Shown here: one piece after another, positions 22,246 to 56,577 of the stretch
How positions within the stretch are numbered: the first letter of the stretch is position 1
Layout of the letters: each line of letters begins with the position of its first letter
Origin: a phage
Direction: 5' to 3' (one strand)
Sequence record: PZ229304.1
Length of the DNA stretch: 64,000 bases
Made by a program: the position numbers and the translations under genes
Notes under the pieces: generated by a model
Told to the model about the DNA's origin: nothing
Database searches by the model: none
Seen by the model: only the letters and a program-made list of their open reading frames with translations

Positions 22246-23235
22246 CTATTCCTCCATACATTTAAGAATATGTGCAATGACAGGTATAGTCCAACCGTTA
22301 CCTAACATCTTATATGCTTGTGTGTTACTACTCAGCTTAAAGTAGTCATCTGGCACACCTTGCAAGCGACAACACTCTTTAACCGTTAACTTTCTATAAT
22401 GTACGCCTTCACTCAATTTTTCAAAAGCATCTAGATATCTTCCAGGTGGAATGTAGGCTAATAGTACGTCTTTAGGCACAGTCGTGAGGCAACGAGTTTT
22501 TTCACTGTCCTGAACTTCCAAACAATGTACCAAACGATCAGTTTTAGATGTACTACGTTTGCCATTTTCATTAATTCTACGCCCATATATTGCTGCCGGA
22601 TAAAAAACCAGTTGTCTGCGACTCTTTTCAAAATACTGTTCTATATTACCACCTTTGGCATAATTTGCATCTATGCAATAAGCCTTATCTCTGTCTACAA
22701 TACTATCATCTTCAATGATATCTTGCAACACTTCATTGGTGATCTCCCAGGGTTTTATTTCCCAGTTGCACCAGTATAAACGTTGTCTATTCTGTGCCGT
22801 GAAATCTGCGGAGTTAATGAATACGGGATCAACACCTAAGTAACTTGTGATCACGTTTTCCCACTCCACTTTCATCTTAACGTTTTCAAGCATGAACTTA
22901 ACATTAGGATTAAACTTTTTAATATGTTCAAGAATTTCAACATATTCGAAGAATAGCTTAGATCGCGGATCTTGAAAGTTCAAACCCTTACCAGAAGAAG
23001 AGAAGCCTTGACACGGACTACCACCTAACAAAAGATCAATTTCTCCCCACGGGATATCCCATTCTCTCCATTTTGTAACATCACCTAACTGAATAATATC
23101 TGGAAAATTTGCTTGGCTTTCAGCTATGGCAAATTTGTCTAATTCTGAAGCATAATATGTATCTACTTCAATACCTGCACTTTTTAGCGCAAGCATTCCT
23201 CCTGACATACCATCAAAAAGACTTAAAACTTTCAT
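22246..23235 (-). CDS. dcm: DNA (cytosine-5)-methyltransferase
   Basis: Motif I FDGMSGG, motif IV GSPCQGFS, motif VI FMLENV, motif VIII QNRQR. Confidence 0.8.
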   Translation of the reverse strand: MKVLSLFDGMSGGMLALKSAGIEVDTYYASELDKFAIAESQANFPDIIQLGDVTKWREWDIPWGEIDLLLGGSPCQGFSSSGKGLNFQDPRSKLFFEYVEILEHIKKFNPNVKFMLENVKMKVEWENVITSYLGVDPVFINSADFTAQNRQRLYWCNWEIKPWEITNEVLQDIIEDDSIVDRDKAYCIDANYAKGGNIEQYFEKSRRQLVFYPAAIYGRRINENGKRSTSKTDRLVHCLEVQDSEKTRCLTTVPKDVLLAYIPPGRYLDAFEKLSEGVHYRKLTVKECCRLQGVPDDYFKLSSNTQAYKMLGNGWTIPVIAHILKCMEE

Positions 23236-28202: not shown

Positions 28203-28453
28203 TATTCATCCCAATCGCCGTTACGAGCACTTTCAAGAACCTTGACAACTTCTGCATACTCTACAGCTAAACCAGCACATACTTCAGCTTGTTTTGCAAT
28301 TGCTTGCTTAAAGAACATAGCGATTGCAACACTCTGTGTTGTGTGAATGTTATCTGCTTTAGTTGATACATGAAGATCAAAATCTTCTTCATCAAAGGTG
28401 AGTTCCATAGTAACAATAAATTTCTCGGTCATAAAAATGCTCCTCTTAAACAA
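28202..28453 (-). CDS. hypothetical protein
   Basis: ORF track. Confidence 0.4.
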   Translation of the reverse strand: MFKRSIFMTEKFIVTMELTFDEEDFDLHVSTKADNIHTTQSVAIAMFFKQAIAKQAEVCAGLAVEYAEVVKVLESARNGDWDE

Positions 28454-28955
28454 AATAGAAAGGTTGAGTTAAACCCAGCCTGTTTTTTGGGTCGTAGACG
28501 TACCAAGCATATGCTGTCTTATCAGTACCACCTGCAACAAAAGATGGTCGTTCAGAAAGAACAATCAAATTTGTTGGTGGATTCTGTTTATGGAATTCCC
28601 TTCGTTTAATAGACTCTAGGAACCCAAGACGCAACAAGTATATGCAAACGTCTGCTTCTTTTAAGCTCTTTTGCAAGAACTCAAGTGCAAGTTTGAATGG
28701 GGGATTTGTGATTATAATATCCGGCTTAGTATGCCATTCGTGGTTAAAATAATCTTTCCCTTCTTCTAACTCACAATATTCTGATCCTTCTGGAAAATGT
28801 TGATAAATTGCAGCAGCAGCGCCTTTACACGGTTCTGCAAAAATAAAACCTTCTTCTTTAAGGTTATTAAAATCTATTACACTAAATAATGCATTTATAC
28901 ATTTTTGTGGAGTAGGATAGTAATCAGTTGGTGGACGATCATACTTATTTGCCAC
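28446..28955 (-). CDS. small DNA methyltransferase, probable N6-adenine type (NPPF catalytic motif)
   Basis: IITNPPF motif IV-like plus N-terminal DYYPTP / EPCKG AdoMet-pocket-like segment. Confidence 0.55.
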   Translation of the reverse strand: MANKYDRPPTDYYPTPQKCINALFSVIDFNNLKEEGFIFAEPCKGAAAAIYQHFPEGSEYCELEEGKDYFNHEWHTKPDIIITNPPFKLALEFLQKSLKEADVCIYLLRLGFLESIKRREFHKQNPPTNLIVLSERPSFVAGGTDKTAYAWYVYDPKNRLGLTQPFYFV

Positions 28956-29413: not shown

Positions 29414-30067
29414 TTAATTATCAGAGGACACTTTATCAAGTTTTTCAGAGACTGTCAATACTTTTTCTTGTGATTCTTTCATTTCTGCTAAAATACTTTC
29501 AGCTTCATCACTATCAGGATCACCAGTCAACAGCATACTAATTAGTTGCTCCTTGCTGAAGTTCAGAATATCTTCCGCTGTTAACTCCAGTTGTTCTTCG
29601 ATCTCTTCGATAAAAGTTTCACCGCCTGAAAAAGCATCTCGCAGTTTTGCAACTTCCATCGCTTCTTCTGGAGTTGCCCCTGCATCTAAAGCTGCTAAAG
29701 CAAAATCTGCCCCACTACCAACAGCATAATAATCTTCAGTTAAAGGATATGCTCGCGTTGGATTATTACCCTCGTGCATATAAATTTTACCGTCTGGGTG
29801 AACAACCAATGCCACAAACTCTTCATCTTCTTTATCAGGATCGGACTGGATCACCAAACCTGGGATTGTCTCTTGTGCTGCTTGGCATTGTAAGTTTTGT
29901 TCGAACCAAGAAAAGAAAGTCAGGATAGAAGACAGACGTCCTGCACCACCAACAAGGTAGTCCCCAATTTTACGCACTTTCTTGAAATTTAAAGTGTCTA
30001 CACGACTACCTACTGTTACTTTACCGTCAGACAGAATTTTGTTACGTGTTGCAATAATTGTTGTCAT
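29414..30067 (-). CDS. HslV-like Ntn-hydrolase peptidase (proteasome beta-like) with C-terminal acidic extension
   Basis: N-terminal MTTIIATR (Thr at position 2), GDYLVGGAGR, pattern resembling HslV TTIVSVR...GFAGG. Confidence 0.55.
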   Translation of the reverse strand: MTTIIATRNKILSDGKVTVGSRVDTLNFKKVRKIGDYLVGGAGRLSSILTFFSWFEQNLQCQAAQETIPGLVIQSDPDKEDEEFVALVVHPDGKIYMHEGNNPTRAYPLTEDYYAVGSGADFALAALDAGATPEEAMEVAKLRDAFSGGETFIEEIEEQLELTAEDILNFSKEQLISMLLTGDPDSDEAESILAEMKESQEKVLTVSEKLDKVSSDN

Positions 30068-30558
30068 TGTACTTCCTCCTGTAGTGTTTTAAGGACTGCT
30101 TTACCACCGCTTACATATTTACGGAGGTAATCAATAGCTCTTAGTGTTTCTTTATCCACAAGAATTTTATTAGTTCTTGTTAGTGGATGATTTAGTAAAT
30201 CACTGCAATTTCTTACTAACATAGATTTCTTGTGAAAAATACTGCTAAGAAAAAGAAGTTTAGAATCTTCTTCATCAATCAGGAGTAATTCTGAATTAGA
30301 CCCAGCTACATTTATTATACACTCAAACAAGCCTTCTTGACTATCAGATAATTCCTGGTAATATTTAGTTAGCCAATCCTCGCCTTTTAACCAACTAAAA
30401 AACATCTGAACTTTTTGCAAAGTTGTCATGTTCTCTAAACGAAGAGATATTTCTTTTTCAATCTTGTCAATATAAATCTGTCTAAACTCATTCGGCTTAA
30501 CTAAGCCAGCTTGATAGCATTCATCAATACCATTGCGATCAATCTCAATTAGCGTCAT
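30064..30558 (-). CDS. hypothetical protein
   Basis: ORF track. Confidence 0.5.
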   Translation of the reverse strand: MTLIEIDRNGIDECYQAGLVKPNEFRQIYIDKIEKEISLRLENMTTLQKVQMFFSWLKGEDWLTKYYQELSDSQEGLFECIINVAGSNSELLLIDEEDSKLLFLSSIFHKKSMLVRNCSDLLNHPLTRTNKILVDKETLRAIDYLRKYVSGGKAVLKTLQEEVQ

Positions 30559-30594
30559 TTAACCTCCATAACAGGCATCCTTGCCTTGTAATTA

Positions 30595-31347
30595 TTAGTA
30601 TACTTCCGTGATGAACTGAGACAAACGGGAACGTTGGTTATCAGCAGTTGTCATTTCAACATAACCAATAAAATCCACAATAGCTTCCCTTTCTCCTTCT
30701 TCATTAATAGGAACAACACGATCTAACAAATCACCTAACCCGTTAGCTCTTCGTTTAATTGCATATGTTTGATTAACATCGCCCATAATGACAATACGTG
30801 TATTAAGACCTGCTCGCTCAAGGAGAAGTTTTACTGTATTTGGTGACATAAGTTGAACTTCATCAATAAGAATAATGCTGTTATCCCACGTAGCACCTAG
30901 TGCATAGTTTGGAATATTAAGTTCAATTTTGCCACTTGCAATATCGTTTTCCAATTTATTTGCAGTCATAAACTGTTGGAAAATTCTTTTAGTTGATTCG
31001 TAGTGTGCTGCTAGTTTATCAGTCTTATCTCCAGATAAGAAACCAATTTGATCATCACCTACTTCTGTCGGGTTTTTAAGGAAAATCAACTTTCTGAAAT
31101 CACCAGCTTTAAGCATTTGCAATGCTTTCCACAGTGCTGTTGTCGTTTTTCCTGTTCCTGCTGGGGCATTAACAATGGTTAAATCATTCCAAACCATGCT
31201 TCTTACAATAGCTTCTTGATTCCCAACAGGGGTAAATTCATCAAGACGGTAATCATCATTTCCTACTGCTTTAGCCGCATAACGACTGGCACGTTTGTCA
31301 TCATTGGCTGCTGATTGACGACGAGCCTTTGCGGTTTTATTTCCCAT
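30595..31347 (-). CDS. phoH: PhoH-like P-loop ATPase
   Basis: Walker A NAPAGTGKTT, IGFLSGD, LIDEVQ motifs. Confidence 0.8.
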   Translation of the reverse strand: MGNKTAKARRQSAANDDKRASRYAAKAVGNDDYRLDEFTPVGNQEAIVRSMVWNDLTIVNAPAGTGKTTTALWKALQMLKAGDFRKLIFLKNPTEVGDDQIGFLSGDKTDKLAAHYESTKRIFQQFMTANKLENDIASGKIELNIPNYALGATWDNSIILIDEVQLMSPNTVKLLLERAGLNTRIVIMGDVNQTYAIKRRANGLGDLLDRVVPINEEGEREAIVDFIGYVEMTTADNQRSRLSQFITEVY

Positions 31348-31366
31348 GTTTGCACTCCTTATAAAA

Positions 31367-31380
31367 GGGGCTTTCGCCCC
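31367..31380 (-). terminator. hairpin GGGGC-tttc-GCCCC (repeated terminator cassette, copy 2)
   Basis: Between lysozyme stop and phoH start; flanked by A/T runs. Confidence 0.55.
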
Positions 31381-31385
31381 TTTGT

Positions 31386-31886
31386 TTAGTTATAAGCGTC
31401 TAATGTTCCAGTTTTAAGTACCTGAATTACACGCTCTGCGCGATTAGGCGTTTGGCGATACCATTTACTTTTACGTAAATTTATAGAGGCTTGAGTATAA
31501 TATGAATTACTCACTAAAGTCAAGCTATTTTTGAAAGATTCTGCACCTTTCAATCCCATTTGAAATACCATATTGATAATAGCCATTTTACGATTAGGAC
31601 TTACTTTATCGTAAATAGGAGATAATATGGTGCTTGAATGGATCTGTTGTATCGCTTTCTTTACGTCACTCTCAAAGATTTTTCTAGCTTCCGCTTCAGT
31701 AATAACCCCATTGGTTTTTCTACCTACTAAGTTATCAAGAATGCGTATAGCTTCTGCTTTATCTTTGCGTTTTGTCAGAAGGTGTCCAATACCAACTGTC
31801 CAATACCCTTCGGTATCAGGATACACAGTTAGCTTTAGTCCTTCATCAAAACGTAACATATCAAACACATCAACTACTTTAGCCAT
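31386..31886 (-). CDS. e: T4-type lysozyme (endolysin, gene e homolog)
   Basis: Near-collinear with T4 lysozyme: MLRFDEGLKLTVYPDTEGYWTVGIGHLLTK, INMVFQMG, SKWYRQTPNRAERV. Confidence 0.9.
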   Translation of the reverse strand: MAKVVDVFDMLRFDEGLKLTVYPDTEGYWTVGIGHLLTKRKDKAEAIRILDNLVGRKTNGVITEAEARKIFESDVKKAIQQIHSSTILSPIYDKVSPNRKMAIINMVFQMGLKGAESFKNSLTLVSNSYYTQASINLRKSKWYRQTPNRAERVIQVLKTGTLDAYN

Positions 31887-32046
31887 GTTTTCCTTATATT
31901 AGTCGCCCTCCCCATGATCTAGCTCTTGAAACAGTAGGTGTTCAGGAGACATTTCACGTTTAGGCTTCGTCTTTTTAGTTTGGGACTTAAGCTCTGTTGC
32001 CAAAGCACGAGAAAAGATCTTACGTTTCTGTTTACCTTTCATATTG

Positions 32047-32313
32047 TTACTCCGCAATCTGAGCCATGAATTCACGTAGTTCAGAAAAACCTCCTACGTG
32101 GGTTAGCTGTTCACCATCTTCCACAAAAATCTGAGGAAATGTGCGTGGTAGAACACCTGTTTTCTCTAAAACCAGATTCTGAATCTGATCTAAAGAATAG
32201 TCTTCATCTAAGGTAAGGTATTTAAAATCCTGTTCACGCTGTTCTAGTAGAATCTTAGCGTTAGTGCAGAAAGGACAATTTGGTTTACCGTAGATAATAA
32301 AATTCATTTTCAC
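32047..32313 (-). CDS. glutaredoxin/NrdH-like redoxin
   Basis: CPFC active site; about 88 aa; within nucleotide metabolism module. Confidence 0.75.
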   Translation of the reverse strand: MKMNFIIYGKPNCPFCTNAKILLEQREQDFKYLTLDEDYSLDQIQNLVLEKTGVLPRTFPQIFVEDGEQLTHVGGFSELREFMAQIAE

Positions 32314-33140
32314 TCCTTGTTTAAAAGTATAGTTAAAGTTCTTACAATACCGCTATCAACACTTCGCGGATTTAAAGTAGGATCTGTTTTTAAATAAGAT
32401 GTTGCTGGTCTGACTGCTTTGGAATTATAGGTTGAAGCAGATACAGGATTAACTGTAACAGACAAATCTATAACAAGAAATATCTTTCGTGCAAAATCAT
32501 ACCAAGAAATATAATCTGCACCTGCATAGTGTACAATTTTACTATTTACACCATCTTTTACAAGTTTAAAAATTGTTTCTGCAAGATCAGGTGCATAAGT
32601 AGGACATGATAAATGATCACATACTACATTAAATTCTTTTTGACCACCGTTGTAGCGTTCCAACATAGTTTTCAAAAAGTTATGTCCAAATTCACTATAA
32701 ACAGAAGCTGTTCTGATAATAAGTGCTGTAGGACAAACTGCTTGTACTAAAGTTTCACCTAATTGTTTACTGTAACCGTAGGTGTTCAAGGGGTTTGTTT
32801 TACTCTCTTCTGTGCCAGCAACATGTCCATCAAAAACATAGTCTGTTGAAATATGTACAAACTGTATCAGTAAATCATTACATGCTTTGGCAATGTTTGT
32901 TGCACCGTATGCATTAACATTTATACAGGTGTTAACATCTTCTTCAGCTTTATCTACTGCCGTGTAAGCCGCACAATTCACAACAACATCAGGCACGTGC
33001 TGTACAAGACTATTCATAACATCTTTAAAGTTGGTAATGTCTATATCACTTGCTTCAATCAAAATAACATCTTCGGGCGCAACTTTTGCCAAAGACTGTC
33101 CTAATTGACCTTTTGAACCAAAGACTAAAAATTTTGTCAA
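32310..33140 (-). CDS. rmlD: dTDP-4-dehydrorhamnose reductase
   Basis: N-terminal Rossmann GSKGQLG; size and position in rml operon. Confidence 0.65.
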   Translation of the reverse strand: MTKFLVFGSKGQLGQSLAKVAPEDVILIEASDIDITNFKDVMNSLVQHVPDVVVNCAAYTAVDKAEEDVNTCINVNAYGATNIAKACNDLLIQFVHISTDYVFDGHVAGTEESKTNPLNTYGYSKQLGETLVQAVCPTALIIRTASVYSEFGHNFLKTMLERYNGGQKEFNVVCDHLSCPTYAPDLAETIFKLVKDGVNSKIVHYAGADYISWYDFARKIFLVIDLSVTVNPVSASTYNSKAVRPATSYLKTDPTLNPRSVDSGIVRTLTILLNKE

Positions 33141-33691
33141 AATATGATCTCCTTTAGTGTTTTGGCTTGCTGATCTTTTTGTGACAAGATAGGTTTAAAA
33201 TTAATATCATTAAAGATTAAATCAAAACCCCAATCTATATTGATATCTGGATCATTCCACGCAAGACTACACTCTGAAGTCGGATCGTAATATTCTGTAC
33301 ATTTATATTCAAAATCAGCAATGTCGCTAATCACAACAAAACCATGAGCGAAACCAGGAGGAATCCAAAATTGTGTTTTATTCTTTTCAGATAAAAGAAC
33401 ACCTACCCATTCTCCAAATGTTGGACTACCAACCCTAATATCTACAGCAACATCATAAACTTCACCACGAACACAACGTACTAACTTCCCTTGTGGGTTT
33501 TTCTTTTGAAAATGAAGCCCACGTAGAACTCCTCGAATAGAACGTGAGTGGTTATCCTGGACAAAGTTTTGTTTACCTATGTATTGATCATATAAAGCCT
33601 GATTAAAACTTTCTAAGAAAAAGCCACGTTCATCTCCGTAAACGTCAGGTTGAATGATCAACAAATCTTCGATTTTTGTTGCTTGAATCAT
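33137..33691 (-). CDS. rmlC: dTDP-4-dehydrorhamnose 3,5-epimerase
   Basis: Cupin RmlC signatures RGLHFQ, WIPPGFAHGF. Confidence 0.8.
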   Translation of the reverse strand: MIQATKIEDLLIIQPDVYGDERGFFLESFNQALYDQYIGKQNFVQDNHSRSIRGVLRGLHFQKKNPQGKLVRCVRGEVYDVAVDIRVGSPTFGEWVGVLLSEKNKTQFWIPPGFAHGFVVISDIADFEYKCTEYYDPTSECSLAWNDPDINIDWGFDLIFNDINFKPILSQKDQQAKTLKEIIF

Positions 33692-33704
33692 TTAATTCCC
33701 CCTT

Positions 33705-34574
33705 TTATTTTAATTTAAGTAAATACTTACCGTAGTCTGTTTTACTTAAAACCTCTCCAGAACTTTTTACAGAGTCTAAAGTAATCCATTCATTTTTAAA
33801 AGCAATCTCTTCCAGGCATGCAACCTTCATACCTTGTTGCTTTTCTATTGCATGAACAAATTGAGATGCTTCCATAAGACTTTCATGTGTTCCTGTATCC
33901 AGCCAAGTGAAACCTCTTCCTAGTTTACAGACACGTAAAGTCTTTTCTTTCCAGTACATCTCATTTATATCTGTAATCTCTAACTCCCCTCTAGCAGAAG
34001 GTTTAACGCTCTTAGCTTTCTGTATAACAGAATTATCGTAAAAGTACAAGCCTGTGATTGCGTAGTTGCTTTTTGGTGCTTTTGGTTTTTCTTCAATACT
34101 CACCACTGTACCTTCAGAATCAAACTCAACAACACCAAATCTTTCAGGATCATTTACGTGATACCCAAAAATATTAGCTCCACCATTCTTTTCAATATAT
34201 TCTTTAGCAGAATCTAAAATGCTACCAAAACTCTGACCAAAGAATAAATTATCACCTAGCACAAGTGCTACAGAATCTTCACCAATAAAGTTCTCACCAA
34301 TAATAAATGCTTCTGCTAAACCTTTTGGGCTATCCTGTATTGCATACTGTAGGGAAATACCAAAAGAAGAGCCATCACCTAGAAGATTTACAAAATTAAT
34401 TTGATCTTCTGGTGTTGTAATTATTAGTATTTCCCTAATTCCAGAAAGCATTAGGACAGAGAGTGGATAATAAATCATAGGTTTATCGTAAATTGGTAAT
34501 AGTTGTTTACTAACCCCTTTAGTAACTGGGTAAAGTCTTGTTCCACTACCACCTGCTAAGATAATACCTTTCAT
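33705..34574 (-). CDS. rmlA: glucose-1-phosphate thymidylyltransferase
   Basis: [19 protein letters not shown]-terminus and 289 aa length typical of RmlA. Confidence 0.85.
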
Positions 34575-34582
34575 ACTCCTCC

Positions 34583-35572
34583 TTAAACTTTATTTTCCCA
34601 CCACTCTTTGTTATCTACATACCAATCAATGGTTGAATAAAGTTTTTCTTCAAATGTGCCTTTAGCTTTCCACCCTAATTCCTTTTCAATCTTATAAGGA
34701 TTCACTTCATATCTTAAATCATGCCCAGGCCTATCTGTAACCATCTCAATGAGGCTACAAGCATCTGTTTCAGATGGATATACCGCATCCATATAATCAC
34801 AAATCATATAGATTACATCAATATTAGTTCTAGGGTTTCTGCTCCCAATATTATATGTCTCTCCAGATTTGCCTTTAGTTACTACTAGGTGTAATGCCTC
34901 TGCGTGATCGTCAACGTATAACCAGTCTCTTACTTGAAGACCATTACCATAAACAGGGATTGGTTTATGCATTAAGATATTTGTTATCGTTTTAGGTATT
35001 AGTTTTTCTGGATGATGATATGCTCCAAAATTATTTGAACAATTTGTTATAACTGTCGGAATACCATAAGTACGATGCCACGCTCTTACCAAATGATCGC
35101 TTGCAGCTTTAGATGCAGCATATGGACTACTTGGTTTATAAGGATTCTGTTCTGTAAACGGATAATCTCCTTCTTCCAGATCACCATATACTTCATCTGT
35201 TGAAATATGATGGAACATTTTAAGATTTGATTTATCTCCCATTAAACGAACAGCTTCTAGAAGATTAAATGTCCCAACAATATTTGAATTTATAAAAACA
35301 CTCGGTGATGCTATTGAATTATCTACGTGACTCTCTGCTGCAAGATGCATTATATAATCTGGATTAACATCTGCCACAATCTTAGCAGTTAACTGCGCAT
35401 TTGTCAAGTCAACACGACAAAACTTTACATTAGGTGTTTCTGATAAATTCCTAGGGTCTGAAGCGTAACCCCATTTATCTATAACGTAAATATCATTCTT
35501 AGTATTTTTAGCTAGGAAACGAACTACCGCACTTCCAATAAAGCCTAAACCACCTGTTACTAAGTATTTCAT
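34583..35572 (-). CDS. rmlB: dTDP-glucose 4,6-dehydratase
   Basis: TGGLGFIGS Rossmann motif, SDR YxxxK (YAASK), about 330 aa. Confidence 0.8.
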
Positions 35573-35766
35573 TTAGTCTCCTTCCAATTATTCCCTTCAG
35601 TAAAAATAATACCTTCATAAAACAACCATCTGGAACCTTTTTCAACAGGAACAGGAAGCTCTTCTTCAGTAAAGTTATAAACCTCTCTAGCATCTTCTAA
35701 AAGTGATGCAAATGTTTTTGGACTTACTGTTACGCGAGGAGCATTGATCAGTTGATCTAGCATCAT
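35569..35766 (-). CDS. hypothetical protein
   Basis: Start moved to ATG with AAGGAGGA RBS; stop overlaps rmlB start. Confidence 0.4.
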   Translation of the reverse strand: MMLDQLINAPRVTVSPKTFASLLEDAREVYNFTEEELPVPVEKGSRWLFYEGIIFTEGNNWKETK

Positions 35767-35779
35767 TCTACTATCCTCC

Positions 35780-36106
35780 TTACCAAACGTGTTGAGAAAT
35801 AATAGTTTCCGTTTCAATGTTATATTTTTCAAGAAGTTGTGCATAGGCTTCTTTTGCATTTTTATTTAGTTGCTCAAGATCTACAGCTACACTTCCTTCG
35901 CCACCTTCTAAATAAATGCCATATATGCAATAAGATTCATCAGCGTCATAGAAAGGAGAGATACGACTTAAATCAAGACCTTCTTGTAAGAACCAGTTAA
36001 AGTCTCCATCAAATTCTTCTTCAACTCTAGGATCTTCTCCTACAGCTTCTTCCCATTTATTAAAAGGTGCGCCCTGTAACATACGCCATTCAATATTAGT
36101 CCCCAT
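35780..36106 (-). CDS. hypothetical protein
   Basis: ORF track. Confidence 0.45.
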   Translation of the reverse strand: MGTNIEWRMLQGAPFNKWEEAVGEDPRVEEEFDGDFNWFLQEGLDLSRISPFYDADESYCIYGIYLEGGEGSVAVDLEQLNKNAKEAYAQLLEKYNIETETIISQHVW

Positions 36107-36236
36107 TATCTTCCTCTTCTTCTTCAGTATGAACGAAACCTAAACCGTTACAATTCCAACAAGGAATAAATTGTTCCATACTAACAATAAAATTCCCAGT
36201 ACCACCGCAGATAGGACAAATACTTACATCATCCAT
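36099..36236 (-). CDS. hypothetical small zinc-ribbon protein (45 aa)
   Basis: CPICGG...CWNCNG; start overlaps upstream stop. Confidence 0.3.
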
Positions 36237-36238
36237 TA

Positions 36239-36445
36239 TTAAAGCTCCTCAATCTTTTCTAACATCTGTTTTAACTCATTCTCTGTTAACAGAATTTCTG
36301 TGATACCATCATAAGTTTCCACCATCAGAGTAAAACATTTCTCTCCATCTGAACACACAAAAGCACCACCTTCATCTTCTGTTAAGTCAGAATTAATATC
36401 TACATCAACAAAATCAATCATCTTTTTCTCCTTTGATAATTTCAA
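36239..36445 (-). CDS. hypothetical protein
   Basis: ORF track. Confidence 0.4.
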   Translation of the reverse strand: MKLSKEKKMIDFVDVDINSDLTEDEGGAFVCSDGEKCFTLMVETYDGITEILLTENELKQMLEKIEEL

Positions 36446-36632
36446 ACTTGGCTACACCATTAACTATAATGTGACCGCAAGACATAACTCCTAGCCAATG
36501 ATCACCATTCTTTTTTAAACGTTTACCGTAAACATCACAGAAACCATTCTGTAATTCGGAAGCCTCATAAGAGGCTCCCTTTTCGAAAACGTCTTTGAAG
36601 TCAGAAATTAATCCAACACAAAGTAGTTTCAT
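36414..36632 (-). CDS. hypothetical protein
   Basis: ORF track. Confidence 0.4.
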   Translation of the reverse strand: MKLLCVGLISDFKDVFEKGASYEASELQNGFCDVYGKRLKKNGDHWLGVMSCGHIIVNGVAKFEIIKGEKDD

Positions 36633-37717
36633 TAAAAATCTAACTCCTCGTCATCACTTACATCTTTATTTGCTGAATTCAGTTTGTAAGCTGTAATTTG
36701 GATCTCCTGTGCTGCTGCTTGAATTTGATCTGGATTTAACCAAACATCCATCCAAGGCAGTGGACTTTTCTTCGGTGCACGGAATTTGTGTTTCATTTTC
36801 AGTCTGCGATAGATAGGCGCAGCATTGAAGTAAACCCAAAGTTTGAACAGCTCTGCGTTACCACCAACGATAATCCTTCCTTCACTAAACAGATAGTCAC
36901 ACCAATCTTCCTCTTGTCCAACTACCGTGTCAAGAATTGCTGTCAGAACGTCGATATTATCTTCGTATACTTTTCTCCAGACAGGATCTTTCAGCAATGC
37001 ATCAATAATAGCATAATCCATTTTAACGTGCAATAGTTCATCCAACATAATTTTTTGAATGAGTTTAGCTGCACCTACAAACAGTTGCTGCTCTGCTAAG
37101 GCAAATGTTGCAGCAAAAGATGATATGAATTGAATGCCTTCCAGACCGATAAGTGCAATCATTCCTTTCAGAATCAGTAGACGAAGGTTATCATCCTTCT
37201 CAATCAGACCTAGAGCATACTTATGCCCTGCCTCTGCCAGATCACTCATTATCTCTTCAACTATACCCATCCTCTGGAAGATTCTTTCGTTCTCCATAAT
37301 CTGATCGATAACTTCATTTGGATTAGGGATACACTGACGAATAATTTCAGAATATGTCAAAGCGTGTAAAACTTCCATTTCTGATTGCTTCATCATCATT
37401 GCACATGCTTCGTTGTTGCTTAAAAATGGTGCAAACAAAGTGATGATTGATTTAGCAAGTGAATCATTTTCCCATTGGAAAGATAGGTTTTTGATCATAA
37501 CATCATAGTTGCTTTTAGAACAAGCTACGAAATCTTTTCGTGTCTGATCTAAGTTTACTTCGTTTTCATCCCAATCTTGCTGTTTTTGTAGTTTGTACAG
37601 ACGATGCATTTCTGGGTATGTTACATTAATAGAATCAAAAATACCTAACTGTTCTCCCAAAAACACAGGGTAGAAACCTTCTTTGTAAGTGTCGTTGTAT
37701 AAGTTAATTGCTGCCAT
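36632..37717 (-). CDS. nrdB: ribonucleotide reductase class Ia small (beta) subunit
   Basis: About 360 aa ferritin-like protein immediately downstream of nrdA; acidic C-terminal tail. Confidence 0.75.
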   Translation of the reverse strand: MAAINLYNDTYKEGFYPVFLGEQLGIFDSINVTYPEMHRLYKLQKQQDWDENEVNLDQTRKDFVACSKSNYDVMIKNLSFQWENDSLAKSIITLFAPFLSNNEACAMMMKQSEMEVLHALTYSEIIRQCIPNPNEVIDQIMENERIFQRMGIVEEIMSDLAEAGHKYALGLIEKDDNLRLLILKGMIALIGLEGIQFISSFAATFALAEQQLFVGAAKLIQKIMLDELLHVKMDYAIIDALLKDPVWRKVYEDNIDVLTAILDTVVGQEEDWCDYLFSEGRIIVGGNAELFKLWVYFNAAPIYRRLKMKHKFRAPKKSPLPWMDVWLNPDQIQAAAQEIQITAYKLNSANKDVSDDEELDF

Positions 37718-38039
37718 TTAAATCCTCCACAATATCGCACATTGCTTTTATTGTATCAATGTGTTCTCTCTCCATACCATGCTCTATGTAAGCCTTCTCT
37801 AATGCGTCCCATACACTCTTTGTGAGTAGTACAGTAACCTCTCCCTCATACCTTGCCCTGGTTAAAGCATACCAGGTAGCTATGGGATCATTGGAAGCCC
37901 ATATTTCAACACTGGAAAATTGAAAACCTGCAATATAATTGCAACACCAATCGAATGTAAAATCTTTACTATCTACCAGTGTATAATTTCCCCAACGCCT
38001 TTGTGGTGTTGCTCCAGGTAATACAACTAATGTAGGCAT
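37704..38039 (-). CDS. hypothetical protein between nrdA and nrdB
   Basis: Start moved to ATG with AAGGAGG RBS. Confidence 0.45.
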   Translation of the reverse strand: MPTLVVLPGATPQRRWGNYTLVDSKDFTFDWCCNYIAGFQFSSVEIWASNDPIATWYALTRARYEGEVTVLLTKSVWDALEKAYIEHGMEREHIDTIKAMCDIVEDLNGSN

Positions 38040-38051
38040 ATTCCTCCTTAA

Positions 38052-38075
38052 GAAAGGGGGACAAAGCCCCCTAGT
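38052..38075 (-). terminator. hairpin GGGGGACAAAGCCCCC-like stem-loop downstream of nrdA
   Basis: GC stem with flanking T/A runs. Confidence 0.45.
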
Positions 38076-38079
38076 TTCA

Positions 38080-40341
38080 TTACATCTTACAAGCCTCACA
38101 ACCGGATTCTTCATCCTCTTGAGCGAGTGAGGTTGCCGATTTTGTTCTACTATTTAGATAGTACAAAGATTTACCACCAAGTTTTGCAAACTGAAGGATA
38201 TATTGCATTTCTGATTTAATGGATAAACGACCACCTTCCATCTTAGAGTAGTCAATCCACTTATCACATGATGCACCTTGATCTAAGAATTTAGTCAACA
38301 GGCCATATGCTTCAGCCATATCTTTATCTGGCGTATCCCAAGCCGATTGGTAAATATCTTTTAGTTTATCGTAATCTGGCACAATAAACAGAACATTACC
38401 TTTTTGGCTTTGTTTATAAACTATAGTATCTCGTACAGGATACACAGAGTTAGTCGTATTACTTACAAGACTACTGGACTCATTTGGAGCAATAGCTGCT
38501 AATACGCTATTTCGGATACCACCTTGTGCAATGATATCTTGTCGTAAACCTTCCCAATCCATTTTAAGTTTAAAATTGCCGATATCGTCTACAGCTTTAG
38601 CGTAGGTATCAATAGGCAACCATCCTTCAGGCCACTTGGTTTTATGCATCCATTCTGCATTACCTTTCTCTTTTGCCAAACGAAGAGAAGCTCTTGCTAA
38701 CCAGTAATAATGTCTTTCTGCTAATTCGTGAATTAGTTTTTTGCCGTAAGGATCTGAGTAAGTAACAAAATTACTTGCCAGATAATGTGCAAGGTTTGTA
38801 ATACCTACGCCGATAGACCTACGTGCTTTAGCAGTGATTTCGTTATGTTTAAACGGATACTGCATTGTTTCAATAACATTATCAATAGTCAGAACGGTAT
38901 AATATGCAACATCTTCATATTCTTCTGGTGTAACACGACCAGCTACAATAGAAGACAGGAAGCATAATGCCAATTCTTGATCTTCTGTATTCTCACCTGT
39001 GAAAAGATCAGTCATATTGTGAAATGCTTTCGTAGGTAAGAAAATTTCTTGGCACAAGTTTGACTGGTAAATAACATCCTTAAACGGAGTATGCTTATTA
39101 GCATTATCCGCAAAGAACATATAAATACGTCCTGTCTCTGCTCTTTGTGTAATAATTTCTGCCAGAAGATCTCGTGCTTTTACAAACTTCTTCTTAATTC
39201 GTTTGCGACTAACTTTTTCATATACTTCTTCAAACTCTTCCTCGCTTTTATAAAGCGCCTCATAGAGTTCTGGTGCTTCGTCATAACTGACTAGCATCCA
39301 ATCTTTACCTTTTGCTGCACGGCGCAGGAAAGCATTGTTTACTACAATAGAGTAATCAAGTTTATCTACTCGTTTTTCACTAACAGTAGTTGGATTTTTC
39401 AAACGTACCAGATCTTCAAAATCAGGTTCTAATATTGTAAACGTTACTGTTGCACTTCCACCACGGCTTGCTTGTTTTGATGCTCCAACACTTGTTTCCA
39501 TCCATTTCAGATATGGTAAAAGACCACCGTGAACGATACGGTTGTTCTTAACACCTTGTCCTGTAGCACGGGTTTGGAGGTTAACACCAATACCTGCATT
39601 ATTCAATGTATATTCATGAGCAAGATAGTTAGCAATTGCTAAAGATTCTGCTGTATCATCTGCTCTAAACAGACAACAAGAAGCACTACCTTTAATCTTA
39701 GTACGCAAAGTTGTTAAATAAGGCGATGGTAAATTAATCTTAAGATCACTTACGTAGGTATATAGACGTTTAATGTCTTCTACTCTGCGATCTTTTGGTT
39801 GAATTTCCATTACCTTCATTGCTACACCAATGAATAAAAACTGTGGTGATTCAAAAACAACATCATTGATCGCATCTTTCACAAGATACTTATCAACCAT
39901 CTGGCGCAGTACGGAATAACCATAAGTTAGGTTTTTATCGTGATTGACAATTTTACCAATCTCAATAATTTCTTCTTCTGTATAATCCATTTTTCCCCAA
40001 TAGCCTTTACTTACAGACATATTGTAGAAATCCAGGAGGGAGGGGATATTGTGATATCCCCCATGAGCCTGTTTATAAATCATACCAAGAAGTAACCGAC
40101 CTGCCATATCACTATATGCCTGATCTTTCTTATCAATACATGCTGCTATCATAGCTTTATGTAAATCACGAGTAGGCACACCGTCGTAACAACGTTTAAC
40201 AGCTTCGAGTTCAATTTCAGACCAATTTAATTTACCAGCAGCAAACTCTGACCATTTACGAAGTTTTTCTGGATTAAATTCTTCTTTCTTGCCGTTTGTT
40301 TTTGTTACATAACGGATAGATTTGCTTAGATACTGAGTCAC
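38080..40341 (-). CDS. nrdA: ribonucleotide reductase class Ia large (alpha) subunit
   Basis: 753 aa; N-terminal ATP-cone-like region; conserved NLCQEI segment; C-terminal CxxC tail. Confidence 0.9.
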   Translation of the reverse strand: MTQYLSKSIRYVTKTNGKKEEFNPEKLRKWSEFAAGKLNWSEIELEAVKRCYDGVPTRDLHKAMIAACIDKKDQAYSDMAGRLLLGMIYKQAHGGYHNIPSLLDFYNMSVSKGYWGKMDYTEEEIIEIGKIVNHDKNLTYGYSVLRQMVDKYLVKDAINDVVFESPQFLFIGVAMKVMEIQPKDRRVEDIKRLYTYVSDLKINLPSPYLTTLRTKIKGSASCCLFRADDTAESLAIANYLAHEYTLNNAGIGVNLQTRATGQGVKNNRIVHGGLLPYLKWMETSVGASKQASRGGSATVTFTILEPDFEDLVRLKNPTTVSEKRVDKLDYSIVVNNAFLRRAAKGKDWMLVSYDEAPELYEALYKSEEEFEEVYEKVSRKRIKKKFVKARDLLAEIITQRAETGRIYMFFADNANKHTPFKDVIYQSNLCQEIFLPTKAFHNMTDLFTGENTEDQELALCFLSSIVAGRVTPEEYEDVAYYTVLTIDNVIETMQYPFKHNEITAKARRSIGVGITNLAHYLASNFVTYSDPYGKKLIHELAERHYYWLARASLRLAKEKGNAEWMHKTKWPEGWLPIDTYAKAVDDIGNFKLKMDWEGLRQDIIAQGGIRNSVLAAIAPNESSSLVSNTTNSVYPVRDTIVYKQSQKGNVLFIVPDYDKLKDIYQSAWDTPDKDMAEAYGLLTKFLDQGASCDKWIDYSKMEGGRLSIKSEMQYILQFAKLGGKSLYYLNSRTKSATSLAQEDEESGCEACKM

Positions 40342-41121: not shown

Positions 41122-42093
41122 TCACCATTTTGTATGATTAGTCAAAAGTTGACGATGTTGAATCCAACCACAGAAGTTTCCACTCCACAAACGATGTTTA
41201 CGATCCATATGTGTAATACCTTCCTCCCAAGAAGAAGGGAACGGAGGCATATTAATACCATCTTTCTGTTGTTTTAATCCTGACAGATCCATTTCTTTCA
41301 TTGGCGTTGCCTGGTGTTCAAACGGAGATGCATGTACCTTTTGTCCAGACAGCAAACGAGAATAGATATCCAATGCTTTATCTTTAGTATCATTCAATTT
41401 ACGATAACTTACCTGAGCGCAACAAGAAGCTGAAATAGCTTTTGCTTCCTCTTCTGTCAACATTTTCTCGTTGGAGAAGGTTTCACCCAAGAAATAACGG
41501 ATCATACCAGTTTCTGGATCTCGATCACGATTAACGTAAGGTGTATGCCATTCCCCTGGGAAAAGAAGATATGGTTCAGAAGATTCATACAGTTTTTTAA
41601 TTTCTTTAGCAAGAGCCTCAATAGTAGGATCTGCATCAGCATCCACGCGCAACCACAAGAAGTTTTCTAGCTCTGTAGTTGTTACTACAGTCTTCATACG
41701 TTGGAATGGTTCTAGTAGGCGGTTTGCAACCTGTTTATGATAACCAGCAAGGGCAAACTCTTCTGCAAAACGTGCAGCACTTAGCGCAGCTAAGTCCCAC
41801 CATTCTTTTGCAGTGTAACCTGCATCAATCAGGGCATCGTGATCTGTGCCTTTATCTTGCATACCTGGTTGGTTAGCACCAAAACGATAAGGACGTGCTG
41901 GAGATTGCCGTACCATTTCAATTAGAGTTTTAACAGGAATAGCTCGACTTGATGCGGCATTACGAGAAAACAAACGATGCGTCATCAATTCAGAGTGAAT
42001 GATTCGGGGATATTCAAGTTCAAAGGTAACAATATCTTTACCTTCAGATGTTTGAGAGTGTGCAATAATTTTTGCTGAAATAGAATTTGTCAT
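41122..42093 (-). CDS. thyX: ThyX-like flavin-dependent thymidylate synthase homolog (divergent signature)
   Basis: THRLFSRNAASSRA resembles the ThyX RHRxxSxxxxSxRY signature with substitutions; sits next to tk and nrd genes. Confidence 0.5.
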   Translation of the reverse strand: MTNSISAKIIAHSQTSEGKDIVTFELEYPRIIHSELMTHRLFSRNAASSRAIPVKTLIEMVRQSPARPYRFGANQPGMQDKGTDHDALIDAGYTAKEWWDLAALSAARFAEEFALAGYHKQVANRLLEPFQRMKTVVTTTELENFLWLRVDADADPTIEALAKEIKKLYESSEPYLLFPGEWHTPYVNRDRDPETGMIRYFLGETFSNEKMLTEEEAKAISASCCAQVSYRKLNDTKDKALDIYSRLLSGQKVHASPFEHQATPMKEMDLSGLKQQKDGINMPPFPSSWEEGITHMDRKHRLWSGNFCGWIQHRQLLTNHTKW

Positions 42094-42102: not shown

Positions 42103-42693
42103 TTAAGGTAGTAAAATACTTTCAATTTCTTCCCACTGATTATCTAAACCAGTGATAATTACATTAGGAAGTTTCTTTAACTCTTCCAAGTATGGATCTT
42201 CGTAAATAGTGTTGAAATATATTTTCAACGTTTCATCTGGAAATAGGACAAGATTTTCAGCCCTATCGTCAATAGTTACGTCGCAAGGTAATAAGTATTT
42301 TTCTTTTGTTGCGAAAAAACCATTACCAGATGTTCTACTAAAATCCACTTTATCTAAAGATCGTGTTACGTGTCTATATTTAGAACTAAGGTGTCCACCC
42401 TTAGTGTGGCTCGCTATAGATATATTAGCTCCATTTGCAATTATACGATGAACAACATCTGTACTATTAGGTACTACTCCCATAGTATCATATAGATGTT
42501 GGTTATCCCAAAAAGAGTAAGGATCTACACCAAATTGCTTTTTAAAATCAGGGAAATATTTCGTAATATCGTAGTGCACAGTTTTATGTGTCTTATCAAA
42601 TTTGATATTAGATCTACTTACCGCATTTAACCAATTTAACCATTCTATATCTGCTGGAGCTATTACTAAATCCCAATCACATACTAGACGCAT
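42103..42693 (-). CDS. HAD-family 5-prime nucleotidase-like protein
   Basis: Start moved to MRLVCDWDLV (DxD motif I); later DDRAENL; overlaps tk stop. Confidence 0.4.
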   Translation of the reverse strand: MRLVCDWDLVIAPADIEWLNWLNAVSRSNIKFDKTHKTVHYDITKYFPDFKKQFGVDPYSFWDNQHLYDTMGVVPNSTDVVHRIIANGANISIASHTKGGHLSSKYRHVTRSLDKVDFSRTSGNGFFATKEKYLLPCDVTIDDRAENLVLFPDETLKIYFNTIYEDPYLEELKKLPNVIITGLDNQWEEIESILLP

Positions 42694-43240
42694 TATTTCT
42701 CCTGTTATAACATTTTCTACACATTGTTTCGTAAATGTCTTCTCCTCCAATAACAATCTGTTCTTTAGAGTCGATAAGTCTAGCATTGAAAATAGCTTTT
42801 CTTCCACATTTACAAATGCTTTTCAATTCTGTAATTGAATCTGCTATGGCTAATAACCGTTCAGAACCTTCAAACAATTCTGTAGCAAAATCTGTTTTAA
42901 GTCCATAGCAGAATACAGGAATATCGTAATTGTCTACCACATCTCCAAGAATGTCAACCATATCTTTAGTTAGGAATTGTGATTCATCCACAAATACTGC
43001 ATCTACTGGATTTTCTTTAAGCTGTGTATAAATTTCCAGCATATCTTCTTTTGTTTTAACTGGTTTTGCTTCCTCTTTAATACCTATCCTAGAAGCAATA
43101 GCACAACCAGATCTGGTATCTAAAGCCGAAGTTAAAAGAAGAACTTTCATATTTCTTTCTTTATAGTTCCAAGCTGTTTGTAAAAGATGTGTGCTTTTAC
43201 CACTGTTCATTGGACTATATCGGAAATAAAGTTTAGCCAT
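42677..43240 (-). CDS. tdk: thymidine kinase
   Basis: P-loop MNSGKST, about 190 aa, C-terminal zinc-binding CxxC pairs typical of TK. Confidence 0.85.
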   Translation of the reverse strand: MAKLYFRYSPMNSGKSTHLLQTAWNYKERNMKVLLLTSALDTRSGCAIASRIGIKEEAKPVKTKEDMLEIYTQLKENPVDAVFVDESQFLTKDMVDILGDVVDNYDIPVFCYGLKTDFATELFEGSERLLAIADSITELKSICKCGRKAIFNARLIDSKEQIVIGGEDIYETMCRKCYNRRNNASSM

Positions 43241-56506: not shown

Positions 56507-56514
56507 ATAATAAG

Positions 56515-56545
56515 TGTTGACAATAGGGAGTATGCTTAGTAAGAT
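56515..56545 (+). promoter_or_regulatory. promoter-like TTGACA upstream of the Nampt-like gene
   Basis: TTGACA 56517-56522 with AT-rich -10 region. Confidence 0.35.
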
Positions 56546-56577
56546 ACTCCCACACTAACAAACAAGGAGACATAATT

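Follow-up and report, generated by a model that had tools for sequence, protein, structure and literature searches.

A virulent coliphage that makes its own activated rhamnose must have an acceptor for this sugar. The locus that raises the question of the acceptor lies in a stretch of 64,000 nucleotides of phage DNA (sequence record PZ229304.1), hereafter called the window, which belongs to a phi92-like E. coli phage (Justusliebigvirus). An earlier note, made from the sequence alone, had described there four consecutive leftward genes for RmlB, RmlA, RmlC and RmlD, followed by a glutaredoxin gene and neighboured by nrdB, nrdA, a ThyX-like gene and tk. The gene identities, their order and the completeness of the dTDP-L-rhamnose pathway were borne out, as were the neighbours, of which nrdB and nrdA agree with the open reading frame (ORF) list and the phi92 annotation. 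The relevant features are arranged as follows:

22246-23235, C5-cytosine methylase gene
32047-32313, minus strand, glutaredoxin gene (grx), 88 aa, PF00462 45.4 bits
32310-33140, minus strand, rmlD, dTDP-4-dehydrorhamnose reductase, 276 aa, TTG start, phi92 gp064
33137-33691, minus strand, rmlC, dTDP-4-dehydrorhamnose 3,5-epimerase, 184 aa, phi92 gp065
33705-34574, minus strand, rmlA, glucose-1-phosphate thymidylyltransferase, 289 aa, phi92 gp066
34583-35572, minus strand, rmlB, dTDP-glucose 4,6-dehydratase, 329 aa, phi92 gp067
35569-36632, minus strand, run of small ORFs between nrdB and rmlB, equivalents of gp068-gp072
35780-36106, minus strand, gp069-like acidic protein, 108 aa, pI 4.1
36632-37717, minus strand, nrdB, ribonucleotide reductase small subunit (ORF list, phi92 annotation)
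38080-40341, nrdA, matching the phi92 annotation
41122-42093, ThyX-like gene
42677-43240, tk

The assignment of the four rml genes is far above chance. Their products exceed the cut-offs of the respective NCBIfam equivalog models, with 442.5 bits for RmlB (TIGR01181, cut-off 365.1), 472.1 for RmlA (TIGR01207, 360.65), 260.4 for RmlC (TIGR01221, 155.75) and, by a modest margin, 253.8 for RmlD (TIGR01214, 224.05); Pfam profiles agree for all four ORFs. RmlB aligns over its full length with Salmonella RmlB (1g1a, E 7e-117) and has the features of an extended SDR dehydratase, namely GxxGxxG, the Thr-Asp-Glu triad and YxxxK. Relative to 1g1a, GGx[13 protein letters not shown] and YxxSK are kept, and [16 protein letters not shown] and YAASK match. 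RmlA, also aligned over its full length (1iim, E 5e-125), keeps GGSGTRLYP with its G-G-x-G-T-R-L motif. RmlC is a cupin epimerase in which the catalytic His (LRGLHFQ), Lys (GKLVRC) and Tyr of 1dzr (E 6e-64) are retained; the C-terminal Asp, in SQKD, lies beyond the printed 1dzr alignment and was spotted by eye. RmlD is the most divergent of the four and has low identity to solved RmlD structures, aligning with 1vl0 (E 3e-44) and 1kbz (E 6e-35), with GxxGxxG, STDYVFDG and YGYSK present. The full-length alignments and the preserved catalytic motifs show that the genes are intact and not pseudogenised. The encoded enzymes would convert glucose-1-phosphate and dTTP into dTDP-glucose (RmlA), then into dTDP-4-keto-6-deoxy-glucose (RmlB), dTDP-4-keto-rhamnose (RmlC) and finally dTDP-L-rhamnose (RmlD), so that the rml block could supply activated L-rhamnose without dependence on the host. 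Since the sequence does not give the stereochemistry of the last reduction, 6-deoxy-L-talose may be an alternative product of RmlD.

The organization of the cluster is compact. Between the rml genes there are gaps of 8 and 13 nt or, where rmlD meets the rmlC stop, an overlap of 4 nt, and a Shine-Dalgarno sequence precedes each gene of the cluster. A coding-strand scan of 30500-38500 gave a single terminator-like site (38071-38057), located inside the nrdA start region; from 38057 down through rmlBACD and grx to phoH, it found none. All four genes are thus contiguous, on one strand and free of internal terminator-like sites. They are probably transcribed together with nrdAB and grx in a long leftward block, whose timing of expression they may share. 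The counts from the promoter and terminator scan were at the level of shuffled sequences and so give no grounds for a dedicated rml promoter.

The cluster itself is not new. Its enzymes are annotated in dozens of GenBank records and it has been flagged twice in the literature, once as "peculiar", with DNA glycosylation proposed by analogy with T-even phages (Olsen 2020), and once as a "putative dTDP glycosylation machinery" (Maffei 2021). Apart from these speculative mentions and one echo of them, our literature search for a rhamnosylated product found nothing. The earlier note called such a cluster uncommon. This holds for phages overall, RmlC being present in 170 of 50,697 phage records, but not for two heavily sampled genera, Justusliebigvirus and Phapecoctavirus, throughout which the cluster occurs (about 130 records). 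In the cluster, the window is 99.3% identical in nucleotide sequence to phi92 gp064-067, from which it differs by a few substitutions, most of them synonymous, and by an intergenic indel of 1 bp. Since the codon differences are 21 synonymous versus 4 non-synonymous, and at least 54 genomes carry full-length copies with 95-99% identity and intact reading frames, comparison of the sequences indicates that the rml genes are under purifying selection. What we add is context rather than discovery: the insertion history of the block, a variant with rmlC and rmlD only, a co-inherited gp069 and a linked set of glycosyltransferases.

How the cluster came to its present place was revealed by comparison with related phages. 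In the Vequintavirus RudolfGeigy and in Klebsiella phage KP13-16, both without rml genes at this junction, nrdB and grx are adjacent, and no gp068-gp072-like ORFs are found between them. The inserted block, 32310-36632, comprises rmlBACD and the gp068-gp072 equivalents and occupies one and the same site in the window, in phAPEC8 and in Klebsiella phage KP2025. Its ancestral flanks are nrdB upstream and grx, which is outside the sugar pathway, downstream. Since these flanks are adjacent in relatives lacking rml, the embedding in a nucleotide-metabolism module described earlier, correct as to location, is better read as an insertion between nrdB and grx, and would reflect history and not a role in supplying DNA precursors.

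The NrdB of the window is 84-88% identical to those of phAPEC8 and KP2025, and gp072 is 84% identical in phAPEC8. The Rml proteins of the window and phAPEC8 share 54-72% identity. For RmlD, identity is 53-62% between phages versus at most 41% between phage and sampled bacteria, and for RmlB the corresponding values are 62% and at most 55%. Since phage-phage identity exceeds phage-bacterium identity for all four genes, the block looks like one old, lineage-specific acquisition, which would date from a common ancestor that Justusliebigvirus, Phapecoctavirus and KP2025-like phages share. It has persisted in genera whose proteins differ by 30-45%. A recent capture from E. coli was rejected, given the 65-67% nucleotide identity of the rfb loci, their other gene order and the 69% identity of the best bacterial RmlA. 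The base composition of the block (34.9% GC versus 37% for the window) was uninformative as a sign of foreign origin. The gp069-like protein upstream of the rml genes is co-inherited with them: it is found in the window, in phAPEC8 (92% identity) and, directly before rmlC, in KP2025 (48%), and is not found in the complete genome of KP13-16, which is without rml. It has no Pfam match and falls into a family of unknown function (phrog_15453); a search for relatives in another context, covering 5.8 billion proteins, gave only 3 homologs, and these belong to the same phage group.

The complete genome of KP2025 keeps rmlC and rmlD without rmlA and rmlB. In 10 of 11 flanking genes, KP2025 resembles the window phage as much as phAPEC8 does or more, and both the window and phAPEC8 have the complete set of four genes at the shared insertion site; we therefore prefer a loss of rmlB and rmlA in KP2025, and an intermediate that gained only rmlC and rmlD was rejected. 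Host supply would explain how the two genes can serve alone. Every E. coli is able to make dTDP-4-keto-6-deoxy-glucose via RffH/RffG of the enterobacterial common antigen pathway, RmlC and RmlD being present in only some strains; at least one rmlA/B-like locus was found in each of the 5,426 complete E. coli genomes.

The presumed users of the sugar lie elsewhere. The absence of an evident glycosyltransferase, pointed out in the earlier note, applies within the window only: about 68 kb from rml, four glycosyltransferase genes are located beside the primase/helicase genes (PaulScherrer genome). Three of them also occur in KP13-16, and are older than the rml genes; the fourth is a GT4-like paralog (phi92 gp163). 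Their presence in this rml-less phage indicates that the transferase cluster does not need phage-made rhamnose. The paralog, an extra GT-B with a GT4-like fold in the predicted structure, was found only in genera with all four rml genes. It is present in every listed Justusliebigvirus and Phapecoctavirus record but one unannotated 'alia' record (OZ035799, one place), and GT-B is single in KP2025 and KP13-16. The database distribution of the transferases is that of RmlC, with 106-107 'Escherichia' records for RmlC, GT-A and GT-B versus 217 for glutaredoxin; the lack of rml and transferases in Vequintavirus is based on these database counts and the nrdB-grx locus of RudolfGeigy. Such a shared distribution could be mere common ancestry within one subfamily. 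KP2025 lost the extra GT-B yet kept rmlC and rmlD, which poorly fits a one-to-one link between paralog and rhamnose.

Both transferase models are confident (pLDDT 88.6 and 94.6). Reading the acceptor from these folds was rejected, as the matches are generic GT-A/GT4 enzymes acting on lipid, small-molecule, teichoic-acid or protein acceptors; Megavirus GT2-like proteins are among those of GT-A. Generic folds of this kind say nothing on donor or acceptor. In sequence, the only Pfam similarity of the GT-A protein is to PF20691 (TAGT, TET-associated), 60 residues at 23.3 bits, below the 27.5 cut-off. It also weakly matches phrog_842, the PHROG of T-even hmC glucosyltransferases (E 5e-5), and is 26% identical over 183 residues to the GT-A domain of Pacc40 gp98, a large transferase of a Cheoctovirus locus; the latter match (E 2e-13 in a one-locus search, about 1e-7 database-wide) reflects generic GT-A homology, not a shared acceptor.

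With moderate confidence, we favour an intact dTDP-L-rhamnose pathway that feeds phage transferases acting on a virion-protein or cell-envelope acceptor, not on DNA. The rhamnose would most likely be used by the phage's own transferases beside the primase, with gp163, the lineage-specific paralog, as candidate rhamnosyltransferase. The rml block and the transferase cluster are far apart on the genome. Among the acceptors listed earlier, namely phage DNA, a virion protein or a host surface polysaccharide, DNA now appears the least likely, whereas the virion protein and the host envelope remain.

Transfer of dTDP-rhamnose onto hydroxymethylated bases of the phage DNA, which would evade restriction as in T4, is the proposal already in print (Olsen 2020). 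It would suit the position of rml among DNA-metabolism genes and of the transferases beside primase and polymerase, as well as the two weak GT-A similarities to TAGT and to hmC glucosyltransferases, and the C5-cytosine methylase could in principle mark sites. However, a Pfam scan of about 50 proteins from across the genome revealed neither a ThyA-type hydroxymethylase nor a TET/JBP or 2OG oxygenase, an absence that is not absolute, as many small ORFs matched no family. DNA glucosyltransferases are likewise missing from the 50 best structural matches of each of the two modelled transferases. The ThyX-like gene is common to Vequintavirus, which is without rml. To our knowledge, characterised DNA glycosyltransferases use UDP-sugars. 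Moreover, phi92-like phages have been described as 'exceptionally susceptible' to restriction-modification systems (Maffei 2021), as echoed in other literature. Together, this susceptibility and the failure to detect a hydroxymethylase or TET enzyme disfavour a DNA acceptor, and we consider it quite improbable. A sparse, sequence-specific rhamnosylation of DNA bases, perhaps at C5-methylase sites after oxidation by an as yet unrecognised enzyme, would have gone unnoticed in the restriction assays done to date, since it would leave most sites unmodified; we regard it as a long shot, which, if true, would be a new DNA modification with a dTDP-sugar donor.

The pathway could instead act on glycan synthesis of the host, either by sustaining rhamnosylation of its O-antigen, core or capsule, or by diverting dTDP-4-keto-6-deoxy-glucose from Fuc4NAc. 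The diversion would reduce enterobacterial common antigen or a related receptor glycan and so limit superinfection or the loss of progeny on debris. Indeed, the primary receptor of these phages is a wecB-dependent surface glycan, RmlC and RmlD draw on the intermediate that the common-antigen pathway also needs, and the two genes kept by KP2025 are the minimal set for diversion; rml genes of cyanophages and other phages are often interpreted as auxiliary genes for surface polysaccharides. On the other hand, rmlA and rmlB raise the supply of the intermediate, which argues against diversion, a virulent phage has little time for surface remodelling, the annotations of phi92 and PaulScherrer contain no flippase, ligase or Gtr-type membrane component, and the co-conserved phage transferases are left unaccounted for. 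We therefore hold this role to be possible but unlikely. Even less probable is that RmlA and the downstream enzymes adjust dNTP pools in replication by acting as a sink or buffer for dTTP. The use of dTTP by RmlA and the location and probable co-transcription with nrdAB, tk and the thymidylate-synthase-like gene would agree with such a sink, but the location is explained by the insertion between nrdB and grx, purifying selection on all four enzymes would be unnecessary for a sink, KP2025 lost rmlA and kept the two genes whose products use no dTTP, and close relatives replicate without the block; this makes it very improbable. That the rml genes are decaying passengers without a present function would agree with the lack of any reported phenotype and with relatives that live without them. 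Nevertheless, the conservation pattern (the intact frames, the excess of synonymous differences from phi92, the kept catalytic residues and the retention of the block across divergent genera) effectively refutes this reading, to which we give hardly any credence.

Among known systems, the orthologs in phi92 (gp064-gp067) and other Stephanstirmvirinae (Justusliebigvirus, Phapecoctavirus) have the same genes, order and insertion site, and nothing material differs. Bacterial rmlBACD/rfbBDAC operons for O-antigen, capsule or cell-wall rhamnose encode the same four enzymes with the same catalytic residues, and the B-A-C-D order was found in 12 of 80 sampled bacterial loci, for instance in Pseudomonas, Dickeya and Marinomonas, the E. 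coli order being B-D-A-C. Unlike these operons, the phage cluster has no glycosyltransferase, flippase or polymerase genes beside it and lies between nrdB and grx of a virulent phage, and its proteins share at most 69% (RmlA) and 41% (RmlD) identity with those of sampled bacteria. T-even phages, which make glucosyl-hydroxymethylcytosine, are likewise virulent, with sugar-transfer enzymes in early or DNA-metabolism regions; however, they use host UDP-glucose and a dCMP hydroxymethylase, whereas here the dTDP-sugar would be made by a restriction-sensitive phage with no hydroxymethylase or TET detected. Prophage O-antigen modules (Gtr/Oac) differ by their GtrA/GtrB-type membrane components, none of which is annotated in phi92 or PaulScherrer, and by the temperate lifestyle of their carriers, in contrast to this large virulent myovirus.

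Sets of phage-encoded transferases also occur in the virion glycosylation loci of mycobacteriophages (Che8 and other Cheoctovirus, Corndog, Myrna). Glycans have been reported on capsid proteins of Che8 and Rita, and Cheoctovirus relatives glycosylate capsid and tail proteins. The Pacc40 match of GT-A is distant and concerns gp98, not the small transferase gp100, which is probably what corresponds to the essential Che8 gp110, and in the Pacc40 locus examined no sugar-nucleotide pathway was seen, unlike in the rml cluster. No glycosylated virion protein is known for phi92-like phages, and our literature search found no report of glycans on their capsid or tail proteins. Giant viruses combine their own activated rhamnose with their own transferases, as in Mimivirus (UDP-L-rhamnose for fibril glycans) and in chloroviruses (capsid glycans), but they use the eukaryote-type two-enzyme UDP route and not the bacterial four-enzyme dTDP route.

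Owing to their very broad host range, these phages are often proposed for therapy. If a virion protein is the acceptor, theirs would be the first glycosylated coliphage virions known to us, which would matter for their immune recognition. If the acceptor is instead the host envelope, the rml block would give a lytic phage a novel means of controlling receptors or superinfection.

Five consecutive minus-strand ORFs were found exactly where the earlier note had placed an rml operon, and the identities it had read for RmlB, RmlA, RmlC and RmlD hold, since each protein scores above its NCBIfam curated equivalog cut-off, with Pfam in agreement on all four. The neighbours it had named, nrdB, nrdA, the ThyX-like gene and tk, were likewise correct.

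The rml genes and the adjoining glutaredoxin gene
34583-35572, minus strand: RmlB, 329 aa; TIGR01181, 442.5 bits (cut-off 365.1)
33705-34574, minus strand: RmlA, 289 aa; TIGR01207, 472.1 bits (cut-off 360.65)
33137-33691, minus strand: RmlC, 184 aa; TIGR01221, 260.4 bits (cut-off 155.75)
32310-33140, minus strand: RmlD, 276 aa, TTG start; TIGR01214, 253.8 bits (cut-off 224.05)
32047-32313, minus strand: glutaredoxin (grx), 88 aa; Pfam PF00462

Full-length alignments to solved structures show that the catalytic signatures are kept, namely GGx[13 protein letters not shown] and YxxSK in RmlB (compared with 1g1a), GGSGTRLYP in RmlA (1iim), the His, Lys and Tyr residues in RmlC (1dzr), and STDYVFDG and YGYSK in RmlD (1vl0 and 1kbz). 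Judged from their sequences, the four enzymes very probably make dTDP-L-rhamnose. A Shine-Dalgarno sequence precedes each of the genes, which are separated by gaps of 8 and 13 nt or else overlap by 4 nt. Between 30500 and 38500, the only terminator-like site on the coding strand lies at 38071-38057, within the nrdA start, and none was seen from 38057 down to phoH; promoter-like sites were no more numerous than in shuffled sequence.

The rml region shares 99.3% identity with gp063-gp067 of Escherichia phage phi92 and 95-99% with over 50 further Justusliebigvirus genomes. In the phi92 record, "putative dTDP-..." notes have been attached to the four genes ever since its deposition, and all four enzymes are named in most other Justusliebigvirus records. 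Olsen et al. (2020) called the place of the cluster in the DNA-metabolism region "peculiar" and proposed rhamnosylation of hydroxymethylated nucleotides, Maffei et al. (2021) noted that phi92-like phages are "exceptionally susceptible" to restriction-modification systems, and a 2024 paper echoes both the proposal and the restriction sensitivity. Thus, the observation and the main speculation of the earlier note were already in the record; no experimental follow-up of the phage rml cluster was found in the literature searched. Several records labelled "Campylobacter phage" (A150, A145, C3, A110a and others) match this E. coli phage genus with 98.6% identity over the rml region, and "Acinetobacter phage vB_AbaM_ABPW7" and "Pseudomonas phage PsgM04F" are Phapecoctavirus-like; these host labels are probably wrong or come from contaminating coliphages.

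The rml genes are under purifying selection. Between the window and phi92, 21 of the 25 codon differences in the five genes are synonymous, all 54 full-length rml copies read without interruption at the nucleotide level, and the genes are kept in Phapecoctavirus at 54-72% protein identity. The synonymous excess, the uninterrupted copies and this retention rule out decay.

Comparison of gene order explains the unusual location of the cluster. The Vequintavirus RudolfGeigy has thymidylate synthase, nrdA, nrdB and grx in that order, with grx starting 4 nt past nrdB, and in the Klebsiella phage KP13-16, which branches deeply within the subfamily of the window phage, grx also directly follows nrdB. 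Precisely this junction is occupied by an inserted block in the window, in phAPEC8 (a Phapecoctavirus) and in the Klebsiella phage KP2025. Furthermore, the phi92 annotation carries PVP-SE1 similarity notes on nrdB and grx and none on the rml genes. Since the junction is intact in some relatives and occupied in others, the position of the rml genes reflects an insertion event; they are indeed embedded in the nucleotide-metabolism module, as the earlier note stated, but this location does not have to mean that they help to make DNA precursors.

The inserted block also holds small ORFs, including the following one.

Small ORF of the inserted block
35780-36106, minus strand: gp069-like acidic protein, 108 aa, pI 4.1

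This protein matches no Pfam family or known domain, and just three homologs turned up in the databases. All three lineages with rml genes carry it upstream of that cluster; the complete genome of KP13-16, which has no rml genes, lacks it. Its identity between the window and KP2025 is 48%, and at 92% between the window and phAPEC8 it is better conserved than the Rml enzymes (54-72%), which points to strong constraint on it or, alternatively, to recent exchange of this small segment.

The nearby nrdA-nrdB slot also varies in content and seems to attract small genes of a mobile or selfish kind. It holds a 218-aa HNH endonuclease in phi92 and, in the window (37704-38114, minus strand), a 136-aa ORF that overlaps both neighbours, has no Pfam match and has counterparts 50-53% identical in phAPEC8 and KP2025. 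The ThyX-like protein (41122-42093, minus strand, 323 aa) gives a weak partial Thy1 match (36.9 bits, profile positions 59-186 of 191) and is conserved in Vequintavirus and KP13-16 at 52-66% identity; a divergent flavin-dependent thymidylate synthase is one possible identity for it.

As for the source of the block, when one genome per species was compared, the best bacterial RmlA was 69% identical and the spread across phyla was flat (59-69%). All 5,426 complete E. coli genomes gave a DNA match, with an identity of only 65-67% over at most about half of the query, and their gene order differs (rfbB-D-A-C). This low identity and different order indicate that the genes were not captured from the present host. 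Compared with bacteria from 80 loci sampled by RmlA similarity, the phage proteins are closer to each other, with phage-phage identities of 62% for RmlB (at most 55% to bacteria), 72% for RmlA (69%), 62-77% for RmlC (61%) and 53-62% for RmlD (41%). The B-A-C-D order of the phage occurs in 12 of these 80 loci, e.g. in Pseudomonas, Dickeya and Marinomonas. The closer phage-phage identities, together with the shared insertion site, indicate one old acquisition from some bacterium.

Local tblastn on complete genomes revealed three arrangements of the rml genes and of the glycosyltransferase genes.

rml genes and glycosyltransferases by lineage
Window genus and Phapecoctavirus: rmlB, rmlA, rmlC and rmlD; GTx, GT-A and two GT-B copies
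KP2025 (149.5 kb): rmlC and rmlD only; GTx, relocated GT-A and one GT-B
KP13-16 (137.2 kb): no rml genes; GTx, GT-A and one GT-B

In 10 of 11 flanking genes, the window phage is no more similar to phAPEC8 than to KP2025, in which rmlC directly follows gp069. Given this closeness, the state of KP2025 is best read as a loss, by deletion, of the adjacent rmlB and rmlA. Retained alone, rmlC and rmlD would be viable only with host-supplied dTDP-4-keto-6-deoxy-glucose. Enterobacteria make this intermediate via RffH and RffG, in the enterobacterial common antigen pathway, and the presence of at least one rmlA/B-like locus in every E. coli genome (median two) is consistent with such a supply. That a phage should keep the last two steps and presumably take the intermediate from its host argues for a need for the end product, dTDP-L-rhamnose, and against the pathway serving as a sink for dTTP.

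The earlier note had seen no glycosyltransferase in the window. This is correct: tblastn gave no match there, and the corresponding part of phi92 (its first 50 kb, covering most of the window) has none annotated. Searching the rest of the genome, as that note had proposed, found four consecutive transferase genes outside the window, which in PaulScherrer, a phi92-like relative, sit next to the primase/helicase, the distance to the rml block being about 68 kb.

Transferase cluster
PaulScherrer MZ501100 47580-50756 (2580-5756 of stretch L003), minus strand: whole cluster; phi92 counterpart from about 102203
Two GT-B paralogs: 314 and 337 aa, 41% mutual identity, phrog_7162
GT-A protein: 228 aa, phrog_2456
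Fourth protein: 187 aa, phrog_14179

Database-wide, the distribution of the transferases mirrors that of RmlC, whereas glutaredoxin occurs in 217 Escherichia phage records, Vequintavirus included.

Records by identity class
RmlC: 55 at 95% or above; 77 at 60-80%; 106 "Escherichia" records
GT-A: 56 at 95% or above; 71 at 60-80%; 107 "Escherichia" records
GT-B: 54 at 95% or above; 74 at 60-80%; 107 "Escherichia" records

Since KP13-16 has three of the four transferases, these three predate the rml block. The second GT-B (phi92 gp163) occurs in all Justusliebigvirus and Phapecoctavirus records listed, bar one unannotated "alia" record, and is absent from the complete genomes of KP2025 and KP13-16 by tblastn. 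In KP2025 (PP919962), a GT-A homolog with 35% identity lies on the opposite strand among the early genes (94204-94836, plus strand; 2707-3339 of stretch L011) and not inside the transferase cluster, so the set is modular and rearrangeable. Next to the PaulScherrer transferases (L003 7762-17103) is a Ter-type module with TerD, vWA-TerF-like, TelA, TerC, ComF-like PRTase_3, HAD hydrolase and an annotated macrodomain protein; KP2025 and KP13-16 also have similar annotated genes.

The predicted structures of GT-A and GT-B are confident (pLDDT 88.6 and 94.6). An invariant DDD motif is present in the GT-A protein, whose model matches generic GT-A enzymes only (TM scores up to about 0.5), the nearest viral structures being GT2-like proteins of phages and giant viruses. 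The GT-B model is GT4-like, with PglA, MshA, BshA, GtfC, SdgB and TarM as nearest folds, and T4 DNA glucosyltransferase is not among the top 50 structural matches of either model. The phi92-type GT-A is 26% identical to the GT-A domain of gp98, the large glycosyltransferase in the right-arm locus of the Cheoctovirus Pacc40; glycosylation of capsid and tail proteins is reported for Cheoctovirus phages.

Phage DNA is a very unlikely rhamnose acceptor. Although the GT-A protein has sub-threshold matches to TET-associated and T-even DNA glycosyltransferase families, a C5-cytosine methylase is encoded (22246-23235) and many small ORFs are unannotated, the published restriction sensitivity of phi92-like phages (Maffei et al.) speaks against modified DNA, as does the fact that no ThyA-type hydroxymethylase, TET/JBP or 2OG oxygenase was seen among about 50 proteins scanned genome-wide; moreover, the ThyX-like gene is common to relatives without rml. 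Under the mechanism we propose, the phage pathway would make dTDP-L-rhamnose whatever the O-antigen genotype of the host, probably early in infection, with nrdAB, and the phage's own transferases would put rhamnose on a non-DNA acceptor (a virion protein or else a glycoconjugate of the cell envelope), with the lineage-specific GT4 paralog as the candidate rhamnosyltransferase. Use by the phage's own transferases is somewhat favoured; a virion protein is a tentative choice of acceptor, the host envelope an equally tentative one, and the remaining probability falls to something other than these or DNA.

The methylase gene (minus strand) is full-length (PF00145, E 2e-43), and a small second methyltransferase-like gene, so annotated in phi92, lies at 28446-28955 with no Pfam match here; restriction sensitivity is reported despite both. 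By correspondence to the phi92 annotation, other metabolic and host-takeover genes at 55613-58311 (plus strand), 20105-20917 and 29414-30067 (both minus strand) include PRPP synthetase, nicotinamide phosphoribosyltransferase (NAD salvage), a Sir2-like deacetylase and an HslV-like peptidase.

Collectively, the rml cluster is real, intact and conserved, and was previously annotated and flagged in the literature; what is added here is its insertion history, its origin in a single acquisition, a variant with only rmlC and rmlD, gp069 as a co-inherited gene, and a linked set of transferases beyond the window.
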